From the IMG/VR virus record IMGVR_UViG_2778261251_000022: DNA of 13,585 nt; one strand, 5' to 3'. Below the pieces are notes generated by a model. That model was given only the letters and a program-made list of their open reading frames with translations. It was not told where the DNA came from and did not search any database. The stretch is from a virus. Lineage: Duplodnaviria > Heunggongvirae > Uroviricota > Caudoviricetes. A program made the position numbers and the translations under genes. This document shows positions 1-9,356 of the stretch, piece after piece (the stretch's first letter is position 1; each line of letters starts with the position of its first letter).

Positions 1-291
1 TTATCTGGTGTGGTCGTAGTTCTGCCGTAGTCGTTCACCCTCAGCGCAATGACGCGGTTTTTTAACGCCGCTGGTAACGCAACGCGGGCAGGTCATGACG
101 TGGCTGATATACGCATCACGGGCAGCCAGCCACGTCGCTGACGGGGCGCACATATCCGCCAGCGCCTGGCCGTTGCTGGTGGTGTTGTCTTCCGGCCATG
201 TTTCGGGCTGGTGCGCTTCCGGTAAATCCGGTGCAGGTAATGCCCGGATAAACTCACACAATGCATCCGGCAGGCTGAATAACTTATGCAT
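1..291 (-). pseudogene. 96-aa ORF resembling an internal segment of the helicase at 991..2829; probable remnant or duplicated fragment
   Basis: Protein ...CEFIRAL...SNGQALADMC... parallels helicase ...PEFVRWL...SNGQTLADMY.... DNA 151..180 matches 1531..1560 at 29 of 30 nt, then diverges with an indel. TAA stop at 1..3 comes far earlier than in the helicase. Start at 291 (cat at 289..291 on plus). Confidence 0.35.
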
Positions 292-715
292 AAATCTGAT
301 GTTCTGAATCGCTGAAAACGTGCGTTTTATGGCGTTTTTTCGTGATTTCTGCGTGTTCTGATGTGCTCATTTCGCTGTATCCCTTGTGTGGCGCGGGCTG
401 CGCGTGTGTTTCGGTGTTCTTTTTTACCGCCAGAAAACGGTAATCAGGCATATAAACACGGCTGTAAGCCGCGCCGCGTCTGGCTTCGCGTGATTTTGTG
501 CGTCAAAAAGTGCATTTTTGCCCTTAAAAAGCGTTATTCGTAATTCACTGGTAAATGCTCCGCAGGCCGCGCCATTGCTGGCCTTTTCGCTATTCTGTGT
601 GGTTTTGCTGTTTAACCCGTTTTGCACACTAAAATTGCCTTGCATCCCGCGCCACGTAAGGGATTGCCGGGTTTTTATGTTGCGTTTTTTGCCGTGCGTA
701 ATATTGTGCAAGTTG

Positions 716-957
716 GTGGGACTGGTGGGAACTGTGGGAACCGCCTAGAACCACGCGGCTTTCAGTGGTTCCCACCAGTTCCCACGTTGGCTTTTTGTGG
801 GAACCGTGGCGGTTATTTTTTGTTCTTTGCGGTTCCCACCAGTTCCCGCAGAGTTCCCACTCAAAAACGAACAATAATCATACTGATGGTTTTATTATTT
901 ACTGATTTATATATGTTTTATTTTTACGGTTCCCACAGTTCCCACCAGTCCCACCAC
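716..957. repeat. Iteron cluster: about 12 copies of octamer GTTCCCAC/GTGGGAAC in both orientations around an AT-rich core (861..927); probable replication origin (P4 ori/crr-like)
   Basis: Copies read directly at 716-722, 725-732, 734-741, 797-804 (GTGGGAAC orientation) and 768-775, 778-785, 832-839, 842-849 (variant), 853-860, 929-936, 938-945, 948-954 (GTTCCCAC orientation). Lies immediately downstream of the helicase gene. Confidence 0.7.
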
Positions 958-990
958 TTTTTCAGTTTTTAAAAACGCAATTTTTGTGAA

Positions 991-2829
991 TTATTCATCA
1001 ATTGCGAATAACAATGCATTCTGGCCGATGGCGTAAACGCGGTGTTTCTCCCCGTTAACGGAAACGCGTTTTGTGTATCGGCGTTTCCCGTCCGTGTCGC
1101 GGTCAACAATCGCGCCAGCATCGTCAAGACTGGCCGCTATGCGTTTCAGGTCGTAGCCGCTGGCCGCCTCACATAGTGCTTCCGGTAAAAACCAGTAAAC
1201 CCGCTCGCCGTTGCTCCCCGGTCGCCACCATCCGGCGCGGGTGCTTACTGGTTCGCTGTATGTGCTGCCCCCTTCAAAGCGTGAAGCATGGCGGGCGATA
1301 AACCCCGCGACGGCCCGGAGTATTTTCACGTCCTCCGATTGCCCCCGCCCACGATAGTCCGCCCACGCATCAAACATCGCTTTCACTGCCTCCAGTGCTT
1401 CGCCCTGTTTCCACGGCAGAATCCCGGCAGTTATCGCCATTTCCCCGGCCAGTGCGCACAGTGTGAAACGCGCGGCGGCGCGTGCCTCCTGTCCGGTGCT
1501 TACGGGGAATTGTTCGCGCAGTATGGCGTACATATCCGCCAGCGTCTGGCCGTTGCTGTCGGTGCTGGTGGTGTCACTTTCATTGCGGGAAATCAGCCAG
1601 CGCACAAACTCCGGCCCGGCGTGGCCGTAATGGGTAGCCGCATTACCGCGCAGTGTTTCGGCAAATTTCCGGCCTGCTCCCCGGCGTTCTGTGTCGTTGT
1701 CGGGGTTGTGGGGTAGTGCCATTCCGTGAAGACAGTCAAATGCCCCGTAAAGCCGCTGTGCCGGAATATCCAGTAACCGCATTTCCTGCCCGGCCTTGAT
1801 GCGCTGGCCGCCGCTTTCCATGTGTTTACCCACGGTCATTTCCCCGGTGGAAATAATCATGGTGCGCCATGTGTTGACCGGGCGGGCCATGCCGGACACC
1901 TTGCCACGCTGACGGCCTGTTCCGTTGCCAAGCTGATAAATCAGCCCGCCAATATCTCTGGCCGGGGCTTCGCCAATTTCATCCAGTATCAGCGCGGTAT
2001 CGTTCCGCATGGTTGCCAGCCCTTCAAGCCCGGTGCTGGTGGCGTTCCAGTTGCGTTTAAAGTTGCGGGGTTCTCCCCATACGCTACAGGCCACCAGCGC
2101 CCCCACGCTTTTCCCGCTGGAACTGTCGCCCATGAAATGAAATCCGCCGCTGTCCACATCAAGCAACCACAGCAACGGCCCGGCGAGCGATGCACACACG
2201 GCCAGCATGGTTACCGGGTTTCCCCGGCATAATGCGGCCACGTTGTCGCGCCAGCCCTCCGGCGTTCCTGCGGTGGCGTACTCCTGTGAGCCTGCTTCTG
2301 TTGACTGAAACACCACATCACCATCACCGATAACCCCGCCCGGCATGACAAACAGGGCCGGGGAGTGCCACCCGGTGGCCGTGGCCGCGAGCGCCCGGCG
2401 TTTTGGTGCTGACTCCATGATGTATTCAGTCAGTGCCTGCCGTTGTTTGTAGGGAATGGTAACGCCCATGCGTAGCAGTTCCTGCCGGAGTTCTCCGCCG
2501 TCTCCGGCGAGCATTTCCATCGGTGCGGCCCATTCCCGCCACTGGCCTGACGGCGTGAGAAAACGGAGTAATCGCCCGTAGTTTTCGTCTTTGCTGTCGC
2601 TGGTCATGGCGATGACCTCCAGCGGGGAACATATAAACGTGTCTGTGTTGGTTGAGTCGCGCACGCCGTGCCAGTAAAGGCCGGGTTTCAGTATCTGGCC
2701 GCCGTCCACCTGTACATGCTGCGAATAAGTGGCGTAGCCCGGACGCGCCGGGCTGACTTTGGGGTGTTTCTTGCGTGGTGGTTTTCTCTTCCCGGATGTG
2801 ACCGGGGTTTTAGTGGTTGTCCGGGTCAT
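991..2829 (-). CDS. Replicative helicase / P-loop NTPase (P4 alpha C-terminal-like, D5/DUF927-type)
   Basis: 612-aa ORF. Walker A GDSSSGKS and Walker B ALILDEIGE visible in the translation. Sits directly downstream of the primase, overlapping its 3' end by 20 nt. ATG at 2829. Confidence 0.8.
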   Translation of the reverse strand: MTRTTTKTPVTSGKRKPPRKKHPKVSPARPGYATYSQHVQVDGGQILKPGLYWHGVRDSTNTDTFICSPLEVIAMTSDSKDENYGRLLRFLTPSGQWREWAAPMEMLAGDGGELRQELLRMGVTIPYKQRQALTEYIMESAPKRRALAATATGWHSPALFVMPGGVIGDGDVVFQSTEAGSQEYATAGTPEGWRDNVAALCRGNPVTMLAVCASLAGPLLWLLDVDSGGFHFMGDSSSGKSVGALVACSVWGEPRNFKRNWNATSTGLEGLATMRNDTALILDEIGEAPARDIGGLIYQLGNGTGRQRGKVSGMARPVNTWRTMIISTGEMTVGKHMESGGQRIKAGQEMRLLDIPAQRLYGAFDCLHGMALPHNPDNDTERRGAGRKFAETLRGNAATHYGHAGPEFVRWLISRNESDTTSTDSNGQTLADMYAILREQFPVSTGQEARAAARFTLCALAGEMAITAGILPWKQGEALEAVKAMFDAWADYRGRGQSEDVKILRAVAGFIARHASRFEGGSTYSEPVSTRAGWWRPGSNGERVYWFLPEALCEAASGYDLKRIAASLDDAGAIVDRDTDGKRRYTKRVSVNGEKHRVYAIGQNALLFAIDE

Positions 2830-3853
2830 GCTCCATTTCCCATAGCATCAAATCGTTAAAGTCGGAAAGGTCTGGTGATGCACCGGGCGGCCATTCCGGG
2901 AATGTGACGTAACACCCGGCCAGCAATGCGGCTTCGTTGGCTGCTCTGGAACCGGGGTTATCTTTTGATGCCCGGTCATCATCCCCGGCGATAACGAGAG
3001 ATATGCGCGAGCCGTATCGCTCACGCAGCGCCATAGCCACATGTTTAAGGTTTCCCGCATTCATGGCACACACCACGGCCATGACGTTCCAGTACTGGAG
3101 AAGGGCGGCCCCGGTGGCCCACCCCTCACACACGTAAACGTCATGTTCCGGCGCTTCCGGGGCCATCAGGTCAAAGCTCCCCATAACATGGAAAGCCCCC
3201 TGCACCTGACCATCACGGAGAAACATTTTTCGACCGTCCGGGCTGATAATCTGCACGTTCACCACTTCGCCGCATACGTTGTACAGCGGGACAAGCAAAT
3301 CATTACCTGACTGATACAGATTGCCGGGCTGTAGCCGTTTTTTCATGAGATAGGGATGAGAAGGGTTTGCCACCTCCGCCCGGCCAAGCAACTCAAAGGC
3401 CCGGCAGGCGGTCAGTTTCTGGCGCTGGTGGCGCTGTTGCTGTTCCCGCTGGCGGAGTCTGGCCGCCTCCTGTTCTGCGGCCTGTACCCGCACCCGTTGC
3501 GCCTCCCGTTGTTCGCGGGTCATTACATCAGGTTTGCCCAGCGCGGGCAGGCACAGCCCCAGCCTGTCCGCCACAATACGGGCGGCATCAGTCTGCCGCA
3601 CATTCCATAAATAAGCCCCCAGCGCCACAAGGTCGCCGCCGCTGTCCCCGGTGGCGAAGTCGTGCCAGCATCCGTCCACCAGCGAGACGGAAAAACTGCC
3701 CGCGTGACGGTCTGCACGCGTGGGGTTACGACACACCCATTCAGTGGCCTGCCGTTTACCTTCGGGCAGCCATTCGGGAACAAGGATTTCTGCATGTTGT
3801 GCCGCCACTGCGGCAACGCTACGGATTGCGTTAATCGTGGCTATGTCACGCAT
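2810..3853 (-). CDS. DNA primase, zinc-binding + Toprim domain (P4 alpha N-terminal-like)
   Basis: Cys/His cluster CRNPTRADRH...GCWHDF. Toprim motifs VYVCEGWATG (conserved Glu) and LVIAGDDDRASKDNPG. Start moved from the 4003 ORF start to ATG at 3853 (MRDIATINAIRS...), which has GGGAGGA upstream and abuts the TGA stop (3846..3848) of the preceding ORF. Confidence 0.85.
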   Translation of the reverse strand: MRDIATINAIRSVAAVAAQHAEILVPEWLPEGKRQATEWVCRNPTRADRHAGSFSVSLVDGCWHDFATGDSGGDLVALGAYLWNVRQTDAARIVADRLGLCLPALGKPDVMTREQREAQRVRVQAAEQEAARLRQREQQQRHQRQKLTACRAFELLGRAEVANPSHPYLMKKRLQPGNLYQSGNDLLVPLYNVCGEVVNVQIISPDGRKMFLRDGQVQGAFHVMGSFDLMAPEAPEHDVYVCEGWATGAALLQYWNVMAVVCAMNAGNLKHVAMALRERYGSRISLVIAGDDDRASKDNPGSRAANEAALLAGCYVTFPEWPPGASPDLSDFNDLMLWEMEHDPDNH

Positions 3854-4160
3854 GTTGCCCGTCCTCCCTGATTTCCCCGGTGCGGCAGCGCCAGTTATAC
3901 GCCTCCACAACCTCACTGAATCCGGCCACAAGTTCAGCCGTAACAGCGATGGAATCGCCCAGGCTGCGTAGTTCATTTGGACCAAGAGCATTATTGTCGC
4001 CAATTACCGAAAGTAGCCGCCCTGTGCCAGCCAGCGCATCAAGCAGTTTGCGGGCGCAGTAATCCGCATCATCAAACATTGCGCGGGCTTCCTGTGCGTC
4101 TGCGTTTTTGATGGCCGCAACCAGTAGTTCAGGTATCCGGGTGTTATACATATCACGCAT
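3846..4160 (-). CDS. Hypothetical small protein (104 aa) in the operon upstream of the primase
   Basis: ORF with GGGGAGG RBS upstream of ATG at 4160. Stop abuts primase start. Its start overlaps the stop of the 4153..4449 ORF. No recognisable motif. Confidence 0.6.
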   Translation of the reverse strand: MRDMYNTRIPELLVAAIKNADAQEARAMFDDADYCARKLLDALAGTGRLLSVIGDNNALGPNELRSLGDSIAVTAELVAGFSEVVEAYNWRCRTGEIREDGQHA

Positions 4161-4449
4161 GGCTTACCTCCCCGGCCTGCTGGTCGTAACACTCCATCAG
4201 TTCGGCCATACAGCCAATGAGGGCAGGGGCTGTCTGTAGAAATCCGGCTAACTGGCAGATCTCGTCTCTGGAATAGGTGATGGGGTTTTCGCGTAACTGG
4301 CTTTCCTCCAGTGCCTTACCAACAAAGGCAATCCCCGCAAGTAAATTCACTCTGTGCCAGTCTGCATCAACGCGCAGACTCCAGCGGCTTTCTTCGTCCG
4401 GCATACTGCTCATGGCGGCTTTCATTGACTCACGCAGACAATCACGCAT
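4153..4449 (-). CDS. Hypothetical small protein (about 98 aa)
   Basis: Internal ATG at 4449 chosen (MRDCLRESMK...) because the longer 4530 start would overlap the upstream 65-aa gene. Stop at 4153..4155 sits 2 nt from the next ATG (4160). Start is uncertain (4449 vs 4530). Confidence 0.5.
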   Translation of the reverse strand: MRDCLRESMKAAMSSMPDEESRWSLRVDADWHRVNLLAGIAFVGKALEESQLRENPITYSRDEICQLAGFLQTAPALIGCMAELMECYDQQAGEVSHA

Positions 4450-4639
4450 GACGCACCCCCTGAGCCGGAACGCGGCCAGCAAACAGCAACACAAAATCAC
4501 GCGCCAGCATACGGCGGGCGGTTGTTTCATCGGGTGCGTTGACGGATTCGCGGTGTGGGCGGTCGTTCAGGTCGGAACGGCGAACAGCCAGAAAGTGAAA
4601 GGTAAATTCAGGGTGTAACGGGGTTGGGGTCGTAGCCAT
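4442..4639 (-). CDS. Hypothetical small protein (65 aa), first gene of the leftward operon
   Basis: C-terminal part of the 201-aa track ORF. ATG at 4639 is preceded by a strong AAAAGGAGG RBS. The longer N-terminal extension runs through structured, GC-rich intergenic DNA and is judged spurious. Confidence 0.55.
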   Translation of the reverse strand: MATTPTPLHPEFTFHFLAVRRSDLNDRPHRESVNAPDETTARRMLARDFVLLFAGRVPAQGVRHA

Positions 4640-5065
4640 TCTGGCAGCCTCCTTTTGCAAATTTAAGGAGTCACCGCCTGAGTTCCTACACTCATAAGGG
4701 GCGGTGACGCTGGCAGGGGTAGGAATACCGGCGCAAAAGGAAACCGGCCAGCCTTTCGGCTGCCCCACCAGCGCCACCATAGATACAGTGCGGGTCTTGC
4801 CGCTGTGCATGGGTGCGCGATGGCACGACACAAAAAAAGACGCTGGGCGCGTCTGTGTCGCCTTTTGCTCATTAAACGGGTTCCTACGCCCGGCTGGTGG
4901 ATTTACACCAGCGGGGGAAATATAACGCCCACCAGCGATGGCAGGCAAGCAATATTTGCGGTTGCCGCCCATCCCGTGGGGCGTGTGGTGGTTGTTTTGG
5001 GCGTGAGAACGCCCCGGCCCTGTTACGGGCCTTTCTGGCATTTTCATAATGATTATCGCGGTTGG
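4640..5065 (-). promoter_or_regulatory. Structured leader / promoter region between the alpA-like gene and the small-gene/primase operon (candidate immunity or regulatory RNA region)
   Basis: About 425 bp without a convincing ORF. Several stem-loops: GTCACCGCC(4672-4680)/GGCGGTGAC(4702-4710); GCTGGTG...CACCAGC near 4890-4915; GGGCGT-gaga-ACGCCC near 5002-5017. Plus the terminator at 4827..4859. Confidence 0.4.
4827..4859 (-). terminator. Intrinsic-terminator-like hairpin followed by a T7 run on the minus strand
   Basis: Minus strand reads AGACGC-GCCCA-GCGTCT then TTTTTTT (plus 4832..4854). Lies within the alpA to small-gene intergenic leader. Confidence 0.45.
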
Positions 5066-5320
5066 TTAGTGGCTGGTGGGTTCTTTGTTTTTTTGCGCTC
5101 TGGCGATAATTTCTGCCATTACGTTATTGCGTTCCTCCACGCGGGCCGCAAGCCATGCATTAACTTCGGATTCAAACCATCCAACGCGGCGCAGCCCGCG
5201 ACGAAAGCCGGGGATAAATTCGCCAGCCCGAATCATGTCGTCAATGCTGGTAGTGGAACGAAGGCGCAGACGCGCAGCAACCTCGCGTTTGGTGAGGATT
5301 TTATCTTGTGTGGTGTCCAT
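5066..5320 (-). CDS. alpA: AlpA/Vis-family small DNA-binding regulator (excisionase-like HTH)
   Basis: 84 aa from ATG 5320 with AAGAGG RBS. Sequence KREVAARLRLRSTTSIDDMIRAGEFIPGFRRGLRRVGWFESEVNAWLAAR fits the AlpA/prophage-regulatory-protein pattern. Position next to the integrase module is typical. Confidence 0.75.
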   Translation of the reverse strand: MDTTQDKILTKREVAARLRLRSTTSIDDMIRAGEFIPGFRRGLRRVGWFESEVNAWLAARVEERNNVMAEIIARAQKNKEPTSH

Positions 5321-5453
5321 GATATTTCGCCTCTTAATTGTATTAATTGGCCCTAACTGGCCATAACAATATGGAAGCACAAGAAGGCGTGAAATTGCCG
5401 GACATGTCCATCAGATGGCTGACATGTCCGGCGTATACTCATTCGTGAATTGA

Positions 5454-6332
5454 CTAATCAACCTTAAACCAGCGTCGCATGGTTTTTTGTGAGGGCAGAG
5501 ATAAACCAGCTTTGCAAAAATCGTTTTCTAATTCTGTTGGCTGGCCCTTGGTTTTGTCTTCTCTTACATGAAGCCATGGTTTGCCTCGCTTCGTTTCATC
5601 CTTGTAATACAGATAAAGCAAATCATCCACAAAAGCAGGCAGTGCGCTTCTTGGGTCTGGTTGTGTCGTCGGTGATGGTAGTTTTTTGGTTATGCACCCC
5701 ATTAACATCCCGTTAGCGCAATCTCTCCCGCCATCCTTAAGGATTTCGATTTCTTCGGCGGTAATAAACAGGTCATCAATGCTTACATCGAGTGGACTGG
5801 AATCAAAAGTAATCATCGGGCTGAGGGAATAATCGTCACCGTCAGTGTTCATTGTCCTTGGCTTTCCAAGAGAAAAACGAGCCGATGACTTTCCATATTT
5901 TACAAAATCATAAAAAGGCATGGATTTGGTCAGGTTGCATATGGACATTAACCCTTCTATGGTCAAGTACCTGTATCCCATTAAAGGTATTTGGTTTTTC
6001 GGAATACCTCTGGGACGTTCTTCACTGATAAACAGAATTGCTGTTGTGACTTCAAAATCTCCCGCGCTATATGGTGTATAGACGGTAAATGGTAGCTGAC
6101 ACAGTGAATCGCCAAGCGGTTTAAATAAAACATACTTATCAGTTGATTTAGTTTCATAATGGTTAAACAGGTCAATTTCAGCCCGCCACCTTCCTGATAT
6201 ATGTGTACAAATCTCCAGCATTCCTATGTCAGCAAAATGAAGCAAATCATCAACACTGCACTTATTGGAGTTTGCAGTCAGATAACTGGCCGCATCGCGT
6301 AGTGAGTAAAACAATCTTTTAGGTAATGCCAT
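5454..6332 (-). CDS. Hypothetical protein (292 aa), cargo gene between integrase and alpA
   Basis: ORF whose ATG (6332) lies 2 nt after the integrase TAA stop (6334..6336). Visibly more AT-rich than the flanking backbone. No motif recognised. Confidence 0.65.
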   Translation of the reverse strand: MALPKRLFYSLRDAASYLTANSNKCSVDDLLHFADIGMLEICTHISGRWRAEIDLFNHYETKSTDKYVLFKPLGDSLCQLPFTVYTPYSAGDFEVTTAILFISEERPRGIPKNQIPLMGYRYLTIEGLMSICNLTKSMPFYDFVKYGKSSARFSLGKPRTMNTDGDDYSLSPMITFDSSPLDVSIDDLFITAEEIEILKDGGRDCANGMLMGCITKKLPSPTTQPDPRSALPAFVDDLLYLYYKDETKRGKPWLHVREDKTKGQPTELENDFCKAGLSLPSQKTMRRWFKVD

Positions 6333-6333
6333 A

Positions 6334-7608
6334 TTATTCACCAACCACTTTTAAGCCACGAAAACCGCCAGTTGCACTAAGGCTTCCGGTTGCTGCCTGT
6401 TCGATAAAATCACCCCACCACGCCATCAGTGGGCGGCGTTGCTCCAGATATGTGGAGCGATTGTAAGCCCGTCTCACCGTGTCCTTATCCAGATGGGAAA
6501 GCGCAGCCTCTATTACATCTGGCGGGAACCCCTGTTCATTAAGCGCCGTACTTGCTACAGAGCGTAAACCATGCGCCACCAGCTTTCCGGTATACCCCAT
6601 GCGCCTGATAGCGGCGTTTGCGGTCTGTTGATGCATCCCACGCATGGGGTCGCTGTTATGTGGAAAAACAAACTTTCGATGCCCGCTGATTGGGCGCATG
6701 GCTTCAAGAATGGCCATTGCCTGATTATTCAGGGGGACAATGTGCTCCCTTCGTTGTTTTAGTCGCCCGGCTGATATACGCCACACTCTGGCATCTGCAT
6801 CTATCTCGCTCCACTGTGCCCCGGCTGCCTCGCATGGGCGGCAAATAGTTAATAATTGCCATTCAATAACAAGACGCGTTTGAAGTTCTGCGCGAGCCGT
6901 TGCCAGTTTTTGCATAAATTCCGGCAACTCATCAGGCCTGATTGTTGGCATGTGTTTAACTACAGGTGGGTTGAATGCCTTGCTGATTTGAGCGGCGGGA
7001 TTAGCTGGAATTAATCCAATATTCACTGCGTAATACATAACCTCATTGATTCTTTGTGCCAGCCGTCGCACCGTATCCGCTTTGCCCTGTGCTGATACAG
7101 GTTTCAGGGCTTCGATAAAATCCCGTGCAACCAGTTCTGTGATTGGGCGATGGCCTATGGGTGGCAGCACATGACGCTCAAGAGAACGCCATATATCACG
7201 GAGTGTATTTGCCGCCAGATTCTGGCCGCGCTTTACTTCAAACCATTCTTCGGCCACGCGCTGAAATGTGTTTAATCGCCGTATTTCATCATCCCGGCGT
7301 TGTTTTTCCCTGTGTTCTTTGGGGTCAGTTCCATTTGCGACCAGTGAGCGATACTCGTCTTTAATCCTGCGAGCATCGGCAATGCTGATTTCGGGATATG
7401 CACCAAGGCTTAACATTGCCCGTTTTTTGGTGTGTGGCTTGTAGTACCGGAACCGCCATAAGGCTGATGCGCTACCCGCTTTCACAACTAACTCCAGCCC
7501 ATCGCCATCCGTGATAAATAAATCCTTCTCGGCGGTGAGCGATTTCTTCTGCAAACTTTTAATCGTCGCTGGTGTAAGTAATTTTGTGTTTTTGGCCACT
7601 GGTTGCAT
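6334..7608 (-). CDS. int: Tyrosine site-specific integrase (P4-type, with N-terminal arm-binding domain)
   Basis: 424 aa. N-terminal WRFRYY motif. C-terminal catalytic signature AHGLRSV...LSHLDKDTVRRAYNRSTY (R, H-x-x-R, H, Y). 5' end faces the tRNA fragment. Confidence 0.9.
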   Translation of the reverse strand: MQPVAKNTKLLTPATIKSLQKKSLTAEKDLFITDGDGLELVVKAGSASALWRFRYYKPHTKKRAMLSLGAYPEISIADARRIKDEYRSLVANGTDPKEHREKQRRDDEIRRLNTFQRVAEEWFEVKRGQNLAANTLRDIWRSLERHVLPPIGHRPITELVARDFIEALKPVSAQGKADTVRRLAQRINEVMYYAVNIGLIPANPAAQISKAFNPPVVKHMPTIRPDELPEFMQKLATARAELQTRLVIEWQLLTICRPCEAAGAQWSEIDADARVWRISAGRLKQRREHIVPLNNQAMAILEAMRPISGHRKFVFPHNSDPMRGMHQQTANAAIRRMGYTGKLVAHGLRSVASTALNEQGFPPDVIEAALSHLDKDTVRRAYNRSTYLEQRRPLMAWWGDFIEQAATGSLSATGGFRGLKVVGE

Positions 7609-7719
7609 CCCGAAACAGGTTTAAGGCATACGAGATTGCTTCTGTTTGTGAGGATATGCCTTGATGTATGCCTAAAGAATCTGGCTTATACCTTAGCAAA
7701 CTGGCCAAAACTGGACAAT

Positions 7720-7755
7720 AAAAAACCCGCAAGCCTTGTGTGGCGCGGGTTTCGT
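7720..7755 (-). terminator. Intrinsic-terminator-like hairpin with T6 run on the minus strand, downstream of the tRNA fragment
   Basis: Minus strand: CCCGCGCC-acacaa-GGCTTGCGGG followed by TTTTTT. Located about 45 nt 3' of the tRNA CCA end. Confidence 0.5.
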
Positions 7756-7796
7756 CTGATTAACTGGCCGTATCTGATACTAACCGAATGTCAATT

Positions 7797-7843
7797 TGGT
7801 GGCCCCTGCTGGACTTGAACCAGCGACCAAGCGATTATGAGTC
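7797..7843 (-). tRNA. Partial tRNA: 3' 47 nt only (anticodon loop CUCAUAA with anticodon CAU, variable loop, T-arm, acceptor 3' strand, CCA); probable att core/direct repeat, not a functional gene
   Basis: Minus strand reads ACTCATAATCGCTTGGTCGCTGGTTCAAGTCCAGCAGGGGCCACCA: T-stem GCTGG/CCAGC with loop TTCAAGT, acceptor GGGGCC plus ACCA. The 5' half (acceptor 5' strand, D-arm, 5' anticodon stem) is absent, as upstream is ...gcctcatg. From memory it matches the 3' part of enterobacterial tRNA-Ile2 (ileX/ileY type); this is unverified. Confidence 0.8.
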
Positions 7844-8039: not shown

Positions 8040-9356
8040 ATGGCCGTCAATCTTACTGAAACAGCCATCCGAGCATTGAAAGCAAAAAAGACATCGTTCT
8101 ATGTCTGGAGCAACAGCTCTCAACGTGGCACTGGACGACTTGGTGTCAAAGTTCAGTCTTCTGGCAGCAAGATTTTCTATTTCCGCTATTACGTGGAAAA
8201 AGGGAAAAAAGAAAGATTCATTCAATTGGGTATATGGCCTGAGATGAAACTGGCCACAGCGAATGAACTGGCAAAAAAGTATGGTGCCTGGCTCATTGAA
8301 GGAAAGGATCCCCAGGCAGAACTGGAACGACAACAGTTTGCAGAACAGCAGCGGATACAACTCCATCAATCACAGGGCTCATTTGAAGCATTGATTCATG
8401 GTTATGTTAACAAAATGAAAATTGATAATAAGAGGACATGGCAGGATGTTCTGAAACGCCTTGAAAATGAATGCTATACAGTGATCCCCCGTGAAACTAA
8501 AGCTAAAGATGTGACTTCCGGACAGATTAAACATATCCTGGCCGGGATCATTCAGCGTGGTGCTGTGGTTCACTCTAACCGGATCCGTTCTTACCTGATG
8601 GCTGCATTTAACTATGGACTGAAAGCAGATAACGATCCGATGAACACAAGTGCAGGGATTACTTTTGGGCTGGAGGCAAATCCGGTGTCAGTGATACCGA
8701 AACAGTCATCTGCTGAAAAAGTCGGTGATACCTGGCTGACACTTGAAGAGTTGCGTTTTCTAATGGAACATTTTGCTGAAGCAACCAACGTTGGATTATT
8801 GATGCAACATTTGATCCGATTCTGTATCTATACCGGAGGGCAACGTCCCTTCGAAATGATCGCCAGTCAGTGGTGTGATGTTGATTTTCAACAAAAAACG
8901 CTGCTGGTGACTGCTGATGTCTCTAAAAATAAACGAGAGCATTTGATACCGTTGACTGAATCAGCATTACAGGAATTATCCTGTGTGCAGGAGTTAACAA
9001 AAGAAAAATCCAGCCCTTACATTTTTCCACTTTCGACTAATGGTAAGCGTCCGGTTCGTACGGACAGTCTGGCTCGCGCTATCATGTATTTCCGGGCTTT
9101 TAATCCTGACTTTAAAATTTTTACAGCACGTGACTTACGTCGGACCTGTAAAACGTTAATGGGAGAAGCTGGGATCAGTAAGGAAATCCGCGATCGTATT
9201 CAAAATCATGCGTTGAACGATGTCAGTTCAAAACATTATGATCGATACGATTATTTGCCAGAAAAACGCAGAGCACTTGAGATCTGGGAGGACCGGGTTA
9301 ATAACTATCAACAGCAAACAGGCAATAATGTTGTCAATCTGTTTGGCAGAAGGTGA
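8040..9356 (+). CDS. int: Tyrosine site-specific integrase (second, distinct from the one at 6334..7608)
   Basis: 438 aa. AAGAGG RBS 5 nt upstream of ATG. N-terminal FYFRYY arm-binding-type motif. C-terminal RDLRRT...IQNHALNDVSSKHYDRYDY (R, H, Y catalytic residues). Confidence 0.88.
   Translation: MAVNLTETAIRALKAKKTSFYVWSNSSQRGTGRLGVKVQSSGSKIFYFRYYVEKGKKERFIQLGIWPEMKLATANELAKKYGAWLIEGKDPQAELERQQFAEQQRIQLHQSQGSFEALIHGYVNKMKIDNKRTWQDVLKRLENECYTVIPRETKAKDVTSGQIKHILAGIIQRGAVVHSNRIRSYLMAAFNYGLKADNDPMNTSAGITFGLEANPVSVIPKQSSAEKVGDTWLTLEELRFLMEHFAEATNVGLLMQHLIRFCIYTGGQRPFEMIASQWCDVDFQQKTLLVTADVSKNKREHLIPLTESALQELSCVQELTKEKSSPYIFPLSTNGKRPVRTDSLARAIMYFRAFNPDFKIFTARDLRRTCKTLMGEAGISKEIRDRIQNHALNDVSSKHYDRYDYLPEKRRALEIWEDRVNNYQQQTGNNVVNLFGRR

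Follow-up and report, generated by a model that had tools for sequence, protein, structure and literature searches.

A probable P4-type RNA immunity module between the alpA-like and kil-like genes of a small island at Escherichia coli tRNA-Ile

We analysed the interval 5065..4640 of a 13,585-nucleotide stretch of viral DNA (Caudoviricetes; IMG/VR record IMGVR_UViG_2778261251_000022), hereafter the window, in which the interval is flanked on the minus strand by an alpA-like gene (5320..5066) and a 65-codon gene starting at 4639. It is very probably the immunity, or self-repression, module of a small integrase/AlpA/primase island located at an E. coli tRNA-Ile gene, homologous to the PLE-seqA-t1-cI-seqC-kil/eta region of phage P4. 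Sequence and comparison together show a promoter-like site, two RNA families, their structures, a three-way complementarity and nested open reading frames (ORFs). An earlier note on the same DNA, made from the letters alone, had proposed an RNA-based immunity or attenuation mechanism analogous to that of P4, or a small RNA; this proposal is now supported by Rfam matches to isrK and C4, nucleotide identity with P4, an alignment running from promoter to kil and covarying target sites, which indicate homology and not just analogy.

The two RNA families follow each other on the minus strand, both above their Rfam gathering scores (Table 1). The upstream one is an isrK-like RNA corresponding to P4 seqA, and the 3' hairpin of its match (E 3e-12) is the intrinsic terminator of the leader. 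The downstream one is a C4-family antisense RNA, the homologue of P4 CI RNA, in which a 17-bp outer stem (4779..4763 with 4719..4703) encloses two hairpins. Comparison of the leader with phage genomes by blastn in a distant search identified phage P4 at 72.5% identity, in a region labelled 'ash' or 'cI gene product' in old records, and Rfam models applied to this P4 region score 60.8 bits for isrK and 74.9 bits for C4, with order and spacing as in the window. A three-way alignment of the window, P4 and the P1-like phage D6 matches the -35 and -10 elements, both 5' hairpins, the terminator, C4, the a2 hairpin, the b2/Shine-Dalgarno segment and the kil start. Folding relative to shuffled sequences gave z scores of -2.19 for the isrK-like RNA (4912..4833), -4.27 for the C4-like RNA (4784..4697) and -5.61 for the 276-nt leader 4912..4637. 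The several stable stem-loops that had been described for the interval are thus real in its 3' two thirds, whereas extra structure in 5065..4950 (z -1.29) and in the spacer 4832..4785 (z -0.10) is no better than in shuffles. A tRNA or tmRNA was also considered as a source of the leader structures and rejected, as ARAGORN finds none in the window.

The C4-like RNA presents two segments, b' and a', that are complementary both to a1/b1 in the isrK-like part and to a2/b2 downstream of C4, the order along the leader being a1-b1 / b'-a' / a2-b2. The sequences GCAAAAGG and GTAGGAA each occur in exactly three copies in the 13.6-kb window, both strands counted, and all of these copies lie in the leader. 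No other site on the entire minus strand forms as good a duplex with the b' loop as b2 (about -18 kcal/mol), and this duplex covers the whole Shine-Dalgarno sequence. The a sites are not singled out by duplex energy alone; because these 7-mers are too short for such a calculation, their support rests on position and covariation.

Related loci were collected by scanning viral contigs with a C4 core pattern, which returned 120 loci (L005-L124). Because the pattern specifies the C4 hairpin 2 stem and a portion of a', these columns are invariant by construction; the b loop and all target sites were left unconstrained. The 120 contigs contain 36 different b' loops and three a' variants, the latter a lower bound since a' is partly fixed by the pattern, and b appears to be the main specificity determinant. 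For 40 (b', a') types we then asked whether a perfect complement of 7 nt or longer stands where expected: a cognate complement is present at the b1 position in 33 of 40 types and at the b2 position in 35 of 40, as against 100 and 22, respectively, of 1538 non-cognate combinations.

A covariation analysis of homologous leaders, which the earlier note had suggested, was carried out on 34 specificity types with one representative each, aligned from the -10 element through the ATG. Intramolecular stems are paired in 98.9% of alignment cells, and 16 of their 44 pairs have changed on both sides. The long-range pairings are maintained to a similar degree: a1-a' and b1-b' are paired in 99.6% of cells (12 of 15 pairs changed on both sides), and a'-a2 and b'-b2 in 97.6% (11 of 16), while controls in which the partner was slid by 1-3 columns are only 31-52% paired. 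Each change in the b' loop is matched at two other sites. Within the C4-like RNA, helices 4-6 are 100% paired in the 34 loci, with seven pairs changed on both sides. Among individual relatives, locus L044 has the window's b core and its a sequence; D6-type phages have only b in common with the window.

A predicted sigma-70-like promoter lies inside the interval and aligns with P4 CTTGCCT...TATAGT, the counterpart of PLE. The T, A and last T of its -10 element are nearly invariant in the 34 loci, and its distance to hairpin 1 of the isrK-like RNA is fixed. Transcription would start at about 4912 and probably yields a constitutive leader RNA of ~273 nt, in place of the ~425-bp leader first envisaged. 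The hairpin-plus-T7 terminator that the earlier note had assigned to 4827..4859 (minus strand) was recovered, with its stem and 7-T run at 4854..4832; its distances from the alpA-like stop and the next gene, given there as ~210 and ~190 nt, are 216 nt (from the stop at 5068..5066) and 193 nt (to the ATG at 4639). It aligns with P4 TGACGCGCCACGCGTCTTTTTTT and is the positional counterpart of the single terminator-like hairpin that P4 has between PLE and cI. Conservation of the hairpins in related elements, on which the original proposal depended, is found for the terminator stem, which is 94.6% paired across the 34 loci with a 22:11 swap between GC and CG, covariation at columns 77/97 and a conserved T-run.

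The leader also appears to have two alternative conformations. In the minimum free energy (MFE) fold of the whole leader, a1/b1 are paired with a'/b' in cis and the a2 hairpin is formed as well. The outer stem of the a2 hairpin and the outer stem of C4 are mutually exclusive, as both use the 3' strand of the C4 stem, and the alternative helix is itself 98.8% paired in the 34 loci with five compensatory pairs. Both of these mutually exclusive folds seem to be under selection and, given that the alternative helix covaries, the leader probably alternates between one fold that contains C4 and another that is closed. For Salmonella isrK-orf45, alternative structures have been demonstrated experimentally (PMC4825925).

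The coding potential of the interval is more extensive than the earlier note allowed when it found no convincing ORF. The 65-codon gene downstream of the leader aligns with P4 kil from ATGGCTAC onward and is annotated by the NCBI Prokaryotic Genome Annotation Pipeline (PGAP) as 'host cell division inhibitor Icd-like protein'. Its frame continues upstream as a 201-codon eta-like ORF that spans the whole interval (5047..4442), and the Pfam Phage_ASH match of this ORF (92.1 bits, residues 42-148) falls exactly over the isrK-like and C4-like RNA genes. The ORF is 42% identical to a P4 ORF of 214 codons whose start lies within vis and whose end is kil; the two frames are the nested kil/eta arrangement of P4. 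This ORF, the internal promoter and the C4/CI-like RNA, which would be the actual immunity factor, had all been overlooked in the reading that correctly placed the terminator. The eta-like ATG at 5047 lies 18 nt past the alpA-like stop and in the same reading frame as the alpA-like gene, so that the two frames are separated by TAA and six codons (5047..5068), and a Shine-Dalgarno sequence is absent before this ATG; such spacing would fit termination-reinitiation coupling.

Several measures indicate that the eta-like frame is maintained. Of 91 related loci, 77 have no stop for at least 300 nt upstream in the frame of the kil ATG, whereas the other two frames reach this length in 0 and 4 loci; an open frame of eta-like length is seen in 1.7% of dinucleotide shuffles. 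The a1-to-ATG distance is divisible by three in 28 of the 34 representatives; with each distinct length counted once, this holds for 11 of 17. In P1-like (D6-like) loci this frame is instead closed by a stop 18 nt ahead of the icd ATG. PGAP has called identical DNA in two ways, as an incomplete 'ash family protein' pseudogene in strain JP538 (L001 7359..7667; window 4664..4972) and as a 201-aa 'Icd-like protein' in strain cq9 (L004 9284..9889). The pseudogene call suggests that the ORF might be merely a spurious translation of the RNA genes; we do not accept this as the full explanation, since the frame is kept in spite of indels, and a published summary of P4 gives eta translation a role (PMC10111431). 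According to that summary, P4 eta is translated only from an upstream late promoter and in coupling with the alpA homologue, and this translation keeps termination from occurring (PMC10111431).

Table 1 Features of the module and its neighbourhood in the window.
Feature	Position	Strand	Details
alpA-like / P4 Vis-like helix-turn-helix (HTH) gene	5066..5320	-	directly upstream of module; PGAP: HTH regulator
eta-like ORF, 201 codons	4442..5047	-	in frame with kil, 136 further codons upstream; spans promoter and both RNA genes
sigma-70-like promoter	4919..4948	-	-35 TTGCCT 4948..4943, 18-nt spacer, -10 TATATT 4924..4919; promoter scan
isrK-like / P4 seqA-like RNA	4833..4912	-	Rfam RF01394 60.7 bits, gathering score 50; last hairpin = terminator
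isrK-like hairpin 1	4912..4893	-	7/7 pairs with compensatory changes
isrK-like hairpin 2	4892..4877	-	invariant; loop holds a1
a1 GUAGGAA	4887..4881	-	in loop of isrK-like hairpin 2
b1 GCAAAAGG	4868..4861	-	single-stranded linker ahead of terminator
intrinsic terminator	4832..4854	-	6-bp stem AGACGC/GCGUCU (4854..4838), 5-nt loop, U7 (4838..4832); terminator scan
C4-family antisense RNA, P4 CI RNA homologue	4697..4784	-	Rfam RF01695 79.6 bits, gathering score 45; full-length match, 1-87
b' CCUUUUGC	4740..4733	-	within 12-nt loop of second C4 hairpin
a' UUCCUAC	4725..4719	-	begins in junction; final base = first of C4 outer stem
a2-presenting hairpin	4670..4708	-	a2 in loop; C4 stem 3' strand (4708..4700) with GGCGGUGAC (4678..4670); full-leader fold
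a2 GUAGGAA	4689..4683	-	hairpin loop downstream of C4
b2 GCAAAAGGA	4658..4650	-	overlaps Shine-Dalgarno AAGGAGG 4654..4648 of kil-like gene
kil / icd-like gene, 65 codons	4442..4639	-	NCBIfam phage_ICD_like NF033153, 73.2 bits (vs 25); first translated gene after internal promoter
downstream genes	991..4449	-	two small ORFs, Toprim protein 4003..2810, DUF927 protein 2829..991

RNAs of the C4 class are excised by RNase P in P1 and P4, and the stable product, about 77 nt long, confers immunity. On this precedent, we propose that transcription from the leader promoter would produce an isrK/seqA-like RNA ending at the U7 terminator, and that read-through transcripts would contain the C4/CI-like RNA. 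The latter would be cut from the leader and accumulate, as inferred from P4, P1 and Gifsy-1, with RNase P being the enzyme in P4 and P1. Pairing of the C4-like RNA with a2/b2 would block translation of kil, so that transcription would stop ahead of the Toprim and DUF927 replication genes; this silencing would keep the island quiescent and exclude any superinfecting copy with matching specificity. On the nascent RNA, pairing at a1/b1 would raise termination at U7 and in this way hold down synthesis of the C4-like RNA itself. On transcripts that enter the leader from upstream, through alpA, ribosomes translating the eta-like ORF across the leader would prevent both RNA pairing and termination, and expression would become insensitive to immunity. 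From the operon layout and the P4 example, the genes that the leader presumably controls are those at 991..4449.

A number of points count against this account. Each functional step would have to hold here as it does in P4 and its relatives, from which it is taken. We presume that the terminator may act as P4 t1 does, in a CI-dependent and autoregulatory manner, and that Rho may have a role. In P4, t1 lies between PLE and cI; it is Rho-independent, terminates efficiently only with CI RNA and seqA, and has its function in CI autoregulation. Downstream of it are another terminator, t4, and the Rho-dependent site timm. Equivalents of these downstream terminators are not recognisable from sequence. 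A CCA-like tail is thought to aid RNase P recognition of these RNAs. The tail 3' of the C4 outer stem (4697..4702) is GCCCC in the window, GCCAU in P4 and CCCA in many relatives, a CCA-like tail being missing in the window and a few relatives (L123, L017; alignment columns 300-305), and with GCCCC in place of GCCAU, RNase P recognition could differ. The c4-a1b1 family (RF03163) was rejected as a separate element, as it scores 38.6 bits at 4925..4873, below its gathering score of 46.7, and is redundant with the isrK match; the same model on P4 gives 44.1 bits, also just under the gathering score. Finally, the island is not satellite phage P4 proper, as separate Toprim and DUF927 genes replace P4 alpha, and 'immunity' may here mean only control of kil and replication. 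Our background on P4 t1, t4, timm, RNase P and Rho draws in part on summaries (PMC4825925, PMC3632133, PMC10111431); a review of Rho (PMC12360218) does not cover P4 immunity.

The strongest competing explanation, which we consider possible although unlikely, is activation of the kind described for IsrK of Salmonella Gifsy-1. Here the short U7-terminated RNA would act in trans on read-through transcripts, or titrate the C4-like RNA, and so open the kil ribosome-binding site; the module would then serve chiefly to turn on kil and the genes that follow it, a function that could coexist with repression as in P4. In Salmonella, translation of the long isrK-orf45 transcript is activated when short IsrK binds to it, and the CI-like RNA STnc1160 has complementarity with IsrK (PMC4825925). 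The above-threshold isrK match in the window is consistent with such a mechanism, as is the MFE fold of the full leader, whose cis pairing of a1/b1 with a'/b' resembles the inactive 'structure A'. However, the gene context (AlpA/Vis, kil, primase) and the DNA similarity resemble P4 more than Gifsy-1, where an antirepressor lies downstream, and the isrK-like RNA has the same sense as a2/b2, so that it could not pair directly with the kil ribosome-binding site and could reach it only via the C4 segment.

Control purely in the manner of P1/P7 immI is less probable still. In this scheme C4 RNA blocks icd translation, polarity follows from lost translational coupling, and a1/b1 and the U7 terminator have no regulatory function. 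The element order in P1-like D6 is identical (isrK-like, C4, icd, then ant), and b2 overlaps the Shine-Dalgarno sequence, as this scheme would have it. Yet covariation with a'/b' is as tight for a1/b1 as for a2/b2, and the terminator shows conservation, which indicates that the upstream sites are under selection. Moreover, the eta-like frame, conserved in P4-like loci, is closed 18 nt upstream in the P1-like ones, and this groups the locus with P4.

A comparably improbable proposal concerns specificity. The window's b (GCAAAAGG/CCUUUUGC) is the D6-type b, whereas its a differs, and this shared half-specificity might reflect cross-talk between satellite and helper, or between elements more generally, instead of pure self-immunity. 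Were this so, the island's C4-like RNA might partly repress a D6-type icd-ant operon, or the phage C4 RNA might act on the island's replication genes, and the 36 b' variants in 120 contigs would represent a diversifying recognition code between competing elements.

Two simpler explanations can be set aside with near certainty. That the hairpin and its T7 run are a plain terminator of the alpA transcript within otherwise ordinary spacer would account for its being the first terminator-like site past alpA, but not for the conserved promoter between alpA and the terminator, the membership of the hairpin in a match to a curated RNA family or the three-way covariation of the flanking sites. That the interval is just a protein-coding gene of the Ash/Eta family, with RNA structures as by-products, is in keeping with the Phage_ASH score of 92 bits, the 201-aa protein called in cq9 and the conserved frame, but coding does not explain compensatory changes in stems and between distant sites, nor a b' loop that varies freely through 36 variants with each change matched at two other sites, and in another strain this DNA is a pseudogene according to PGAP.

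The probable P4-type immunity module is part of a chromosomal island, which we found next to tRNA-Ile, between mug and nfeF, in the porcine E. coli strains JP538 and cq9, at 99.96-99.99% identity to window 1..7843. Among 5426 complete E. coli genomes, 18 match over 80% or more of the query, and 173 have some match. The island comprises int, a hypothetical protein, the alpA-like gene, the module, two small ORFs, Toprim, DUF927 and one small ORF. Pfam identifies Toprim_3 and DUF927 in the downstream proteins, in agreement with the annotation of the identical island in JP538, and adds nothing else for the small ORFs; there is nothing similar to P4 alpha, sid, psu or delta among the annotated genes of the island. 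The alpA-like protein is 41% identical to P4 orf88/Vis, with its Pfam matches both below cut-off (HTH_17, 20.3 bits against 27; Phage_AlpA, 18.6 bits against 21). In its succession of int/alpA, Bro/immunity and replication parts, the island fits what has been described for Gram-negative phage-inducible chromosomal islands (PICIs), and it may be a reduced or defective relative of these; no late or packaging genes are annotated on it, such genes not having been searched for.

Some further features lie outside the module. Only the 3' 47 nt of tRNA-Ile are in the window (7797..7843, minus strand). The identity to JP538 and cq9 ends at 7843, and a second tyrosine integrase gene of 438 aa lies beyond it on the plus strand (8040..9353); therefore, two integrative elements seem to stand side by side at the tRNA gene. 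The island's own integrase is an intact 424-codon ORF in the window (7608..6334) and is annotated as frameshifted in the cq9 island (L004 6733..7997). An inverted repeat on the minus strand at 5398..5431 (CCGGACATGTC ... GACATGTCCGG, 11-nt arms ~12 nt apart) precedes the alpA-like start by ~80 nt, lies immediately before a promoter-like site at 5346..5319, and could be a candidate operator of this upstream promoter.

The value of these results is mainly one of annotation: the region consists of two RNA genes, isrK/seqA-like and C4/CI-like, and nested kil/eta-like frames. To a well-described family, the locus adds one specificity with its own recognition sequences (a GUAGGAA, b GCAAAAGG), and it raises no new mechanistic question. 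The recognition loops of the family vary widely and always change together with both of their targets, a variation that could be useful in work on mutual avoidance or exploitation between satellites and prophages.

Of the known systems, the P4 immunity region is the closest: all elements are in the same order (PLE, seqA, terminator, CI RNA, seqC, nested kil/eta), a Vis/AlpA homologue lies upstream, kil has 65 codons and an eta-like ORF reads through the RNAs. The differences are a spacer between terminator and C4 that is 54 nt shorter in the window and recognition sequences that do not agree, a being GUAGGAA in the window and GUGAGAA in P4, and b being GCAAAAGG in the window and UUCACAGG in P4; the island is therefore probably heteroimmune to P4. 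The P1/P7 immI region (c4, icd, ant), as seen in D6, likewise combines an isrK-like RNA and C4 with an icd-like gene and a1/b1 and a2/b2 targets. Rfam gives the same isrK and C4 pair upstream of D6 icd and ant, and the D6 b sequence, GCAAAAGG, is identical to the window's. Unlike the window, D6 has an antirepressor past icd, lacks an eta-like open frame and has UUGAGAC as its a site. A second, weaker C4-like match is present in D6 (L003 1554..1633; 40.2 bits, below 45), ~470 nt upstream of its main C4 RNA.

The Gifsy-1 isrK/STnc1160/orf45/anrP locus, whose Salmonella RNA is the one on which the Rfam isrK family was built, resembles the window in having a short terminated RNA, a read-through mRNA and alternative structures (PMC4825925). 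IsrK has been described as a structural homologue of P4 seqA, with a CI-like RNA downstream of it (PMC4825925). The documented output of Gifsy-1 is activation of an antirepressor and of AntQ, whereas the genes downstream in the window are kil and replication genes. Finally, a published summary of the eta/kil/CI/seqA model also reports matches of the Rfam C4 and isrK models in several Gram-negative PICIs (PMC10111431). As in our island, the 'Bro zone' of these elements, an eta-like (Phage_ASH) gene with C4 and isrK matches, follows an int-alpA zone and is itself followed by a primase zone (PMC10111431).

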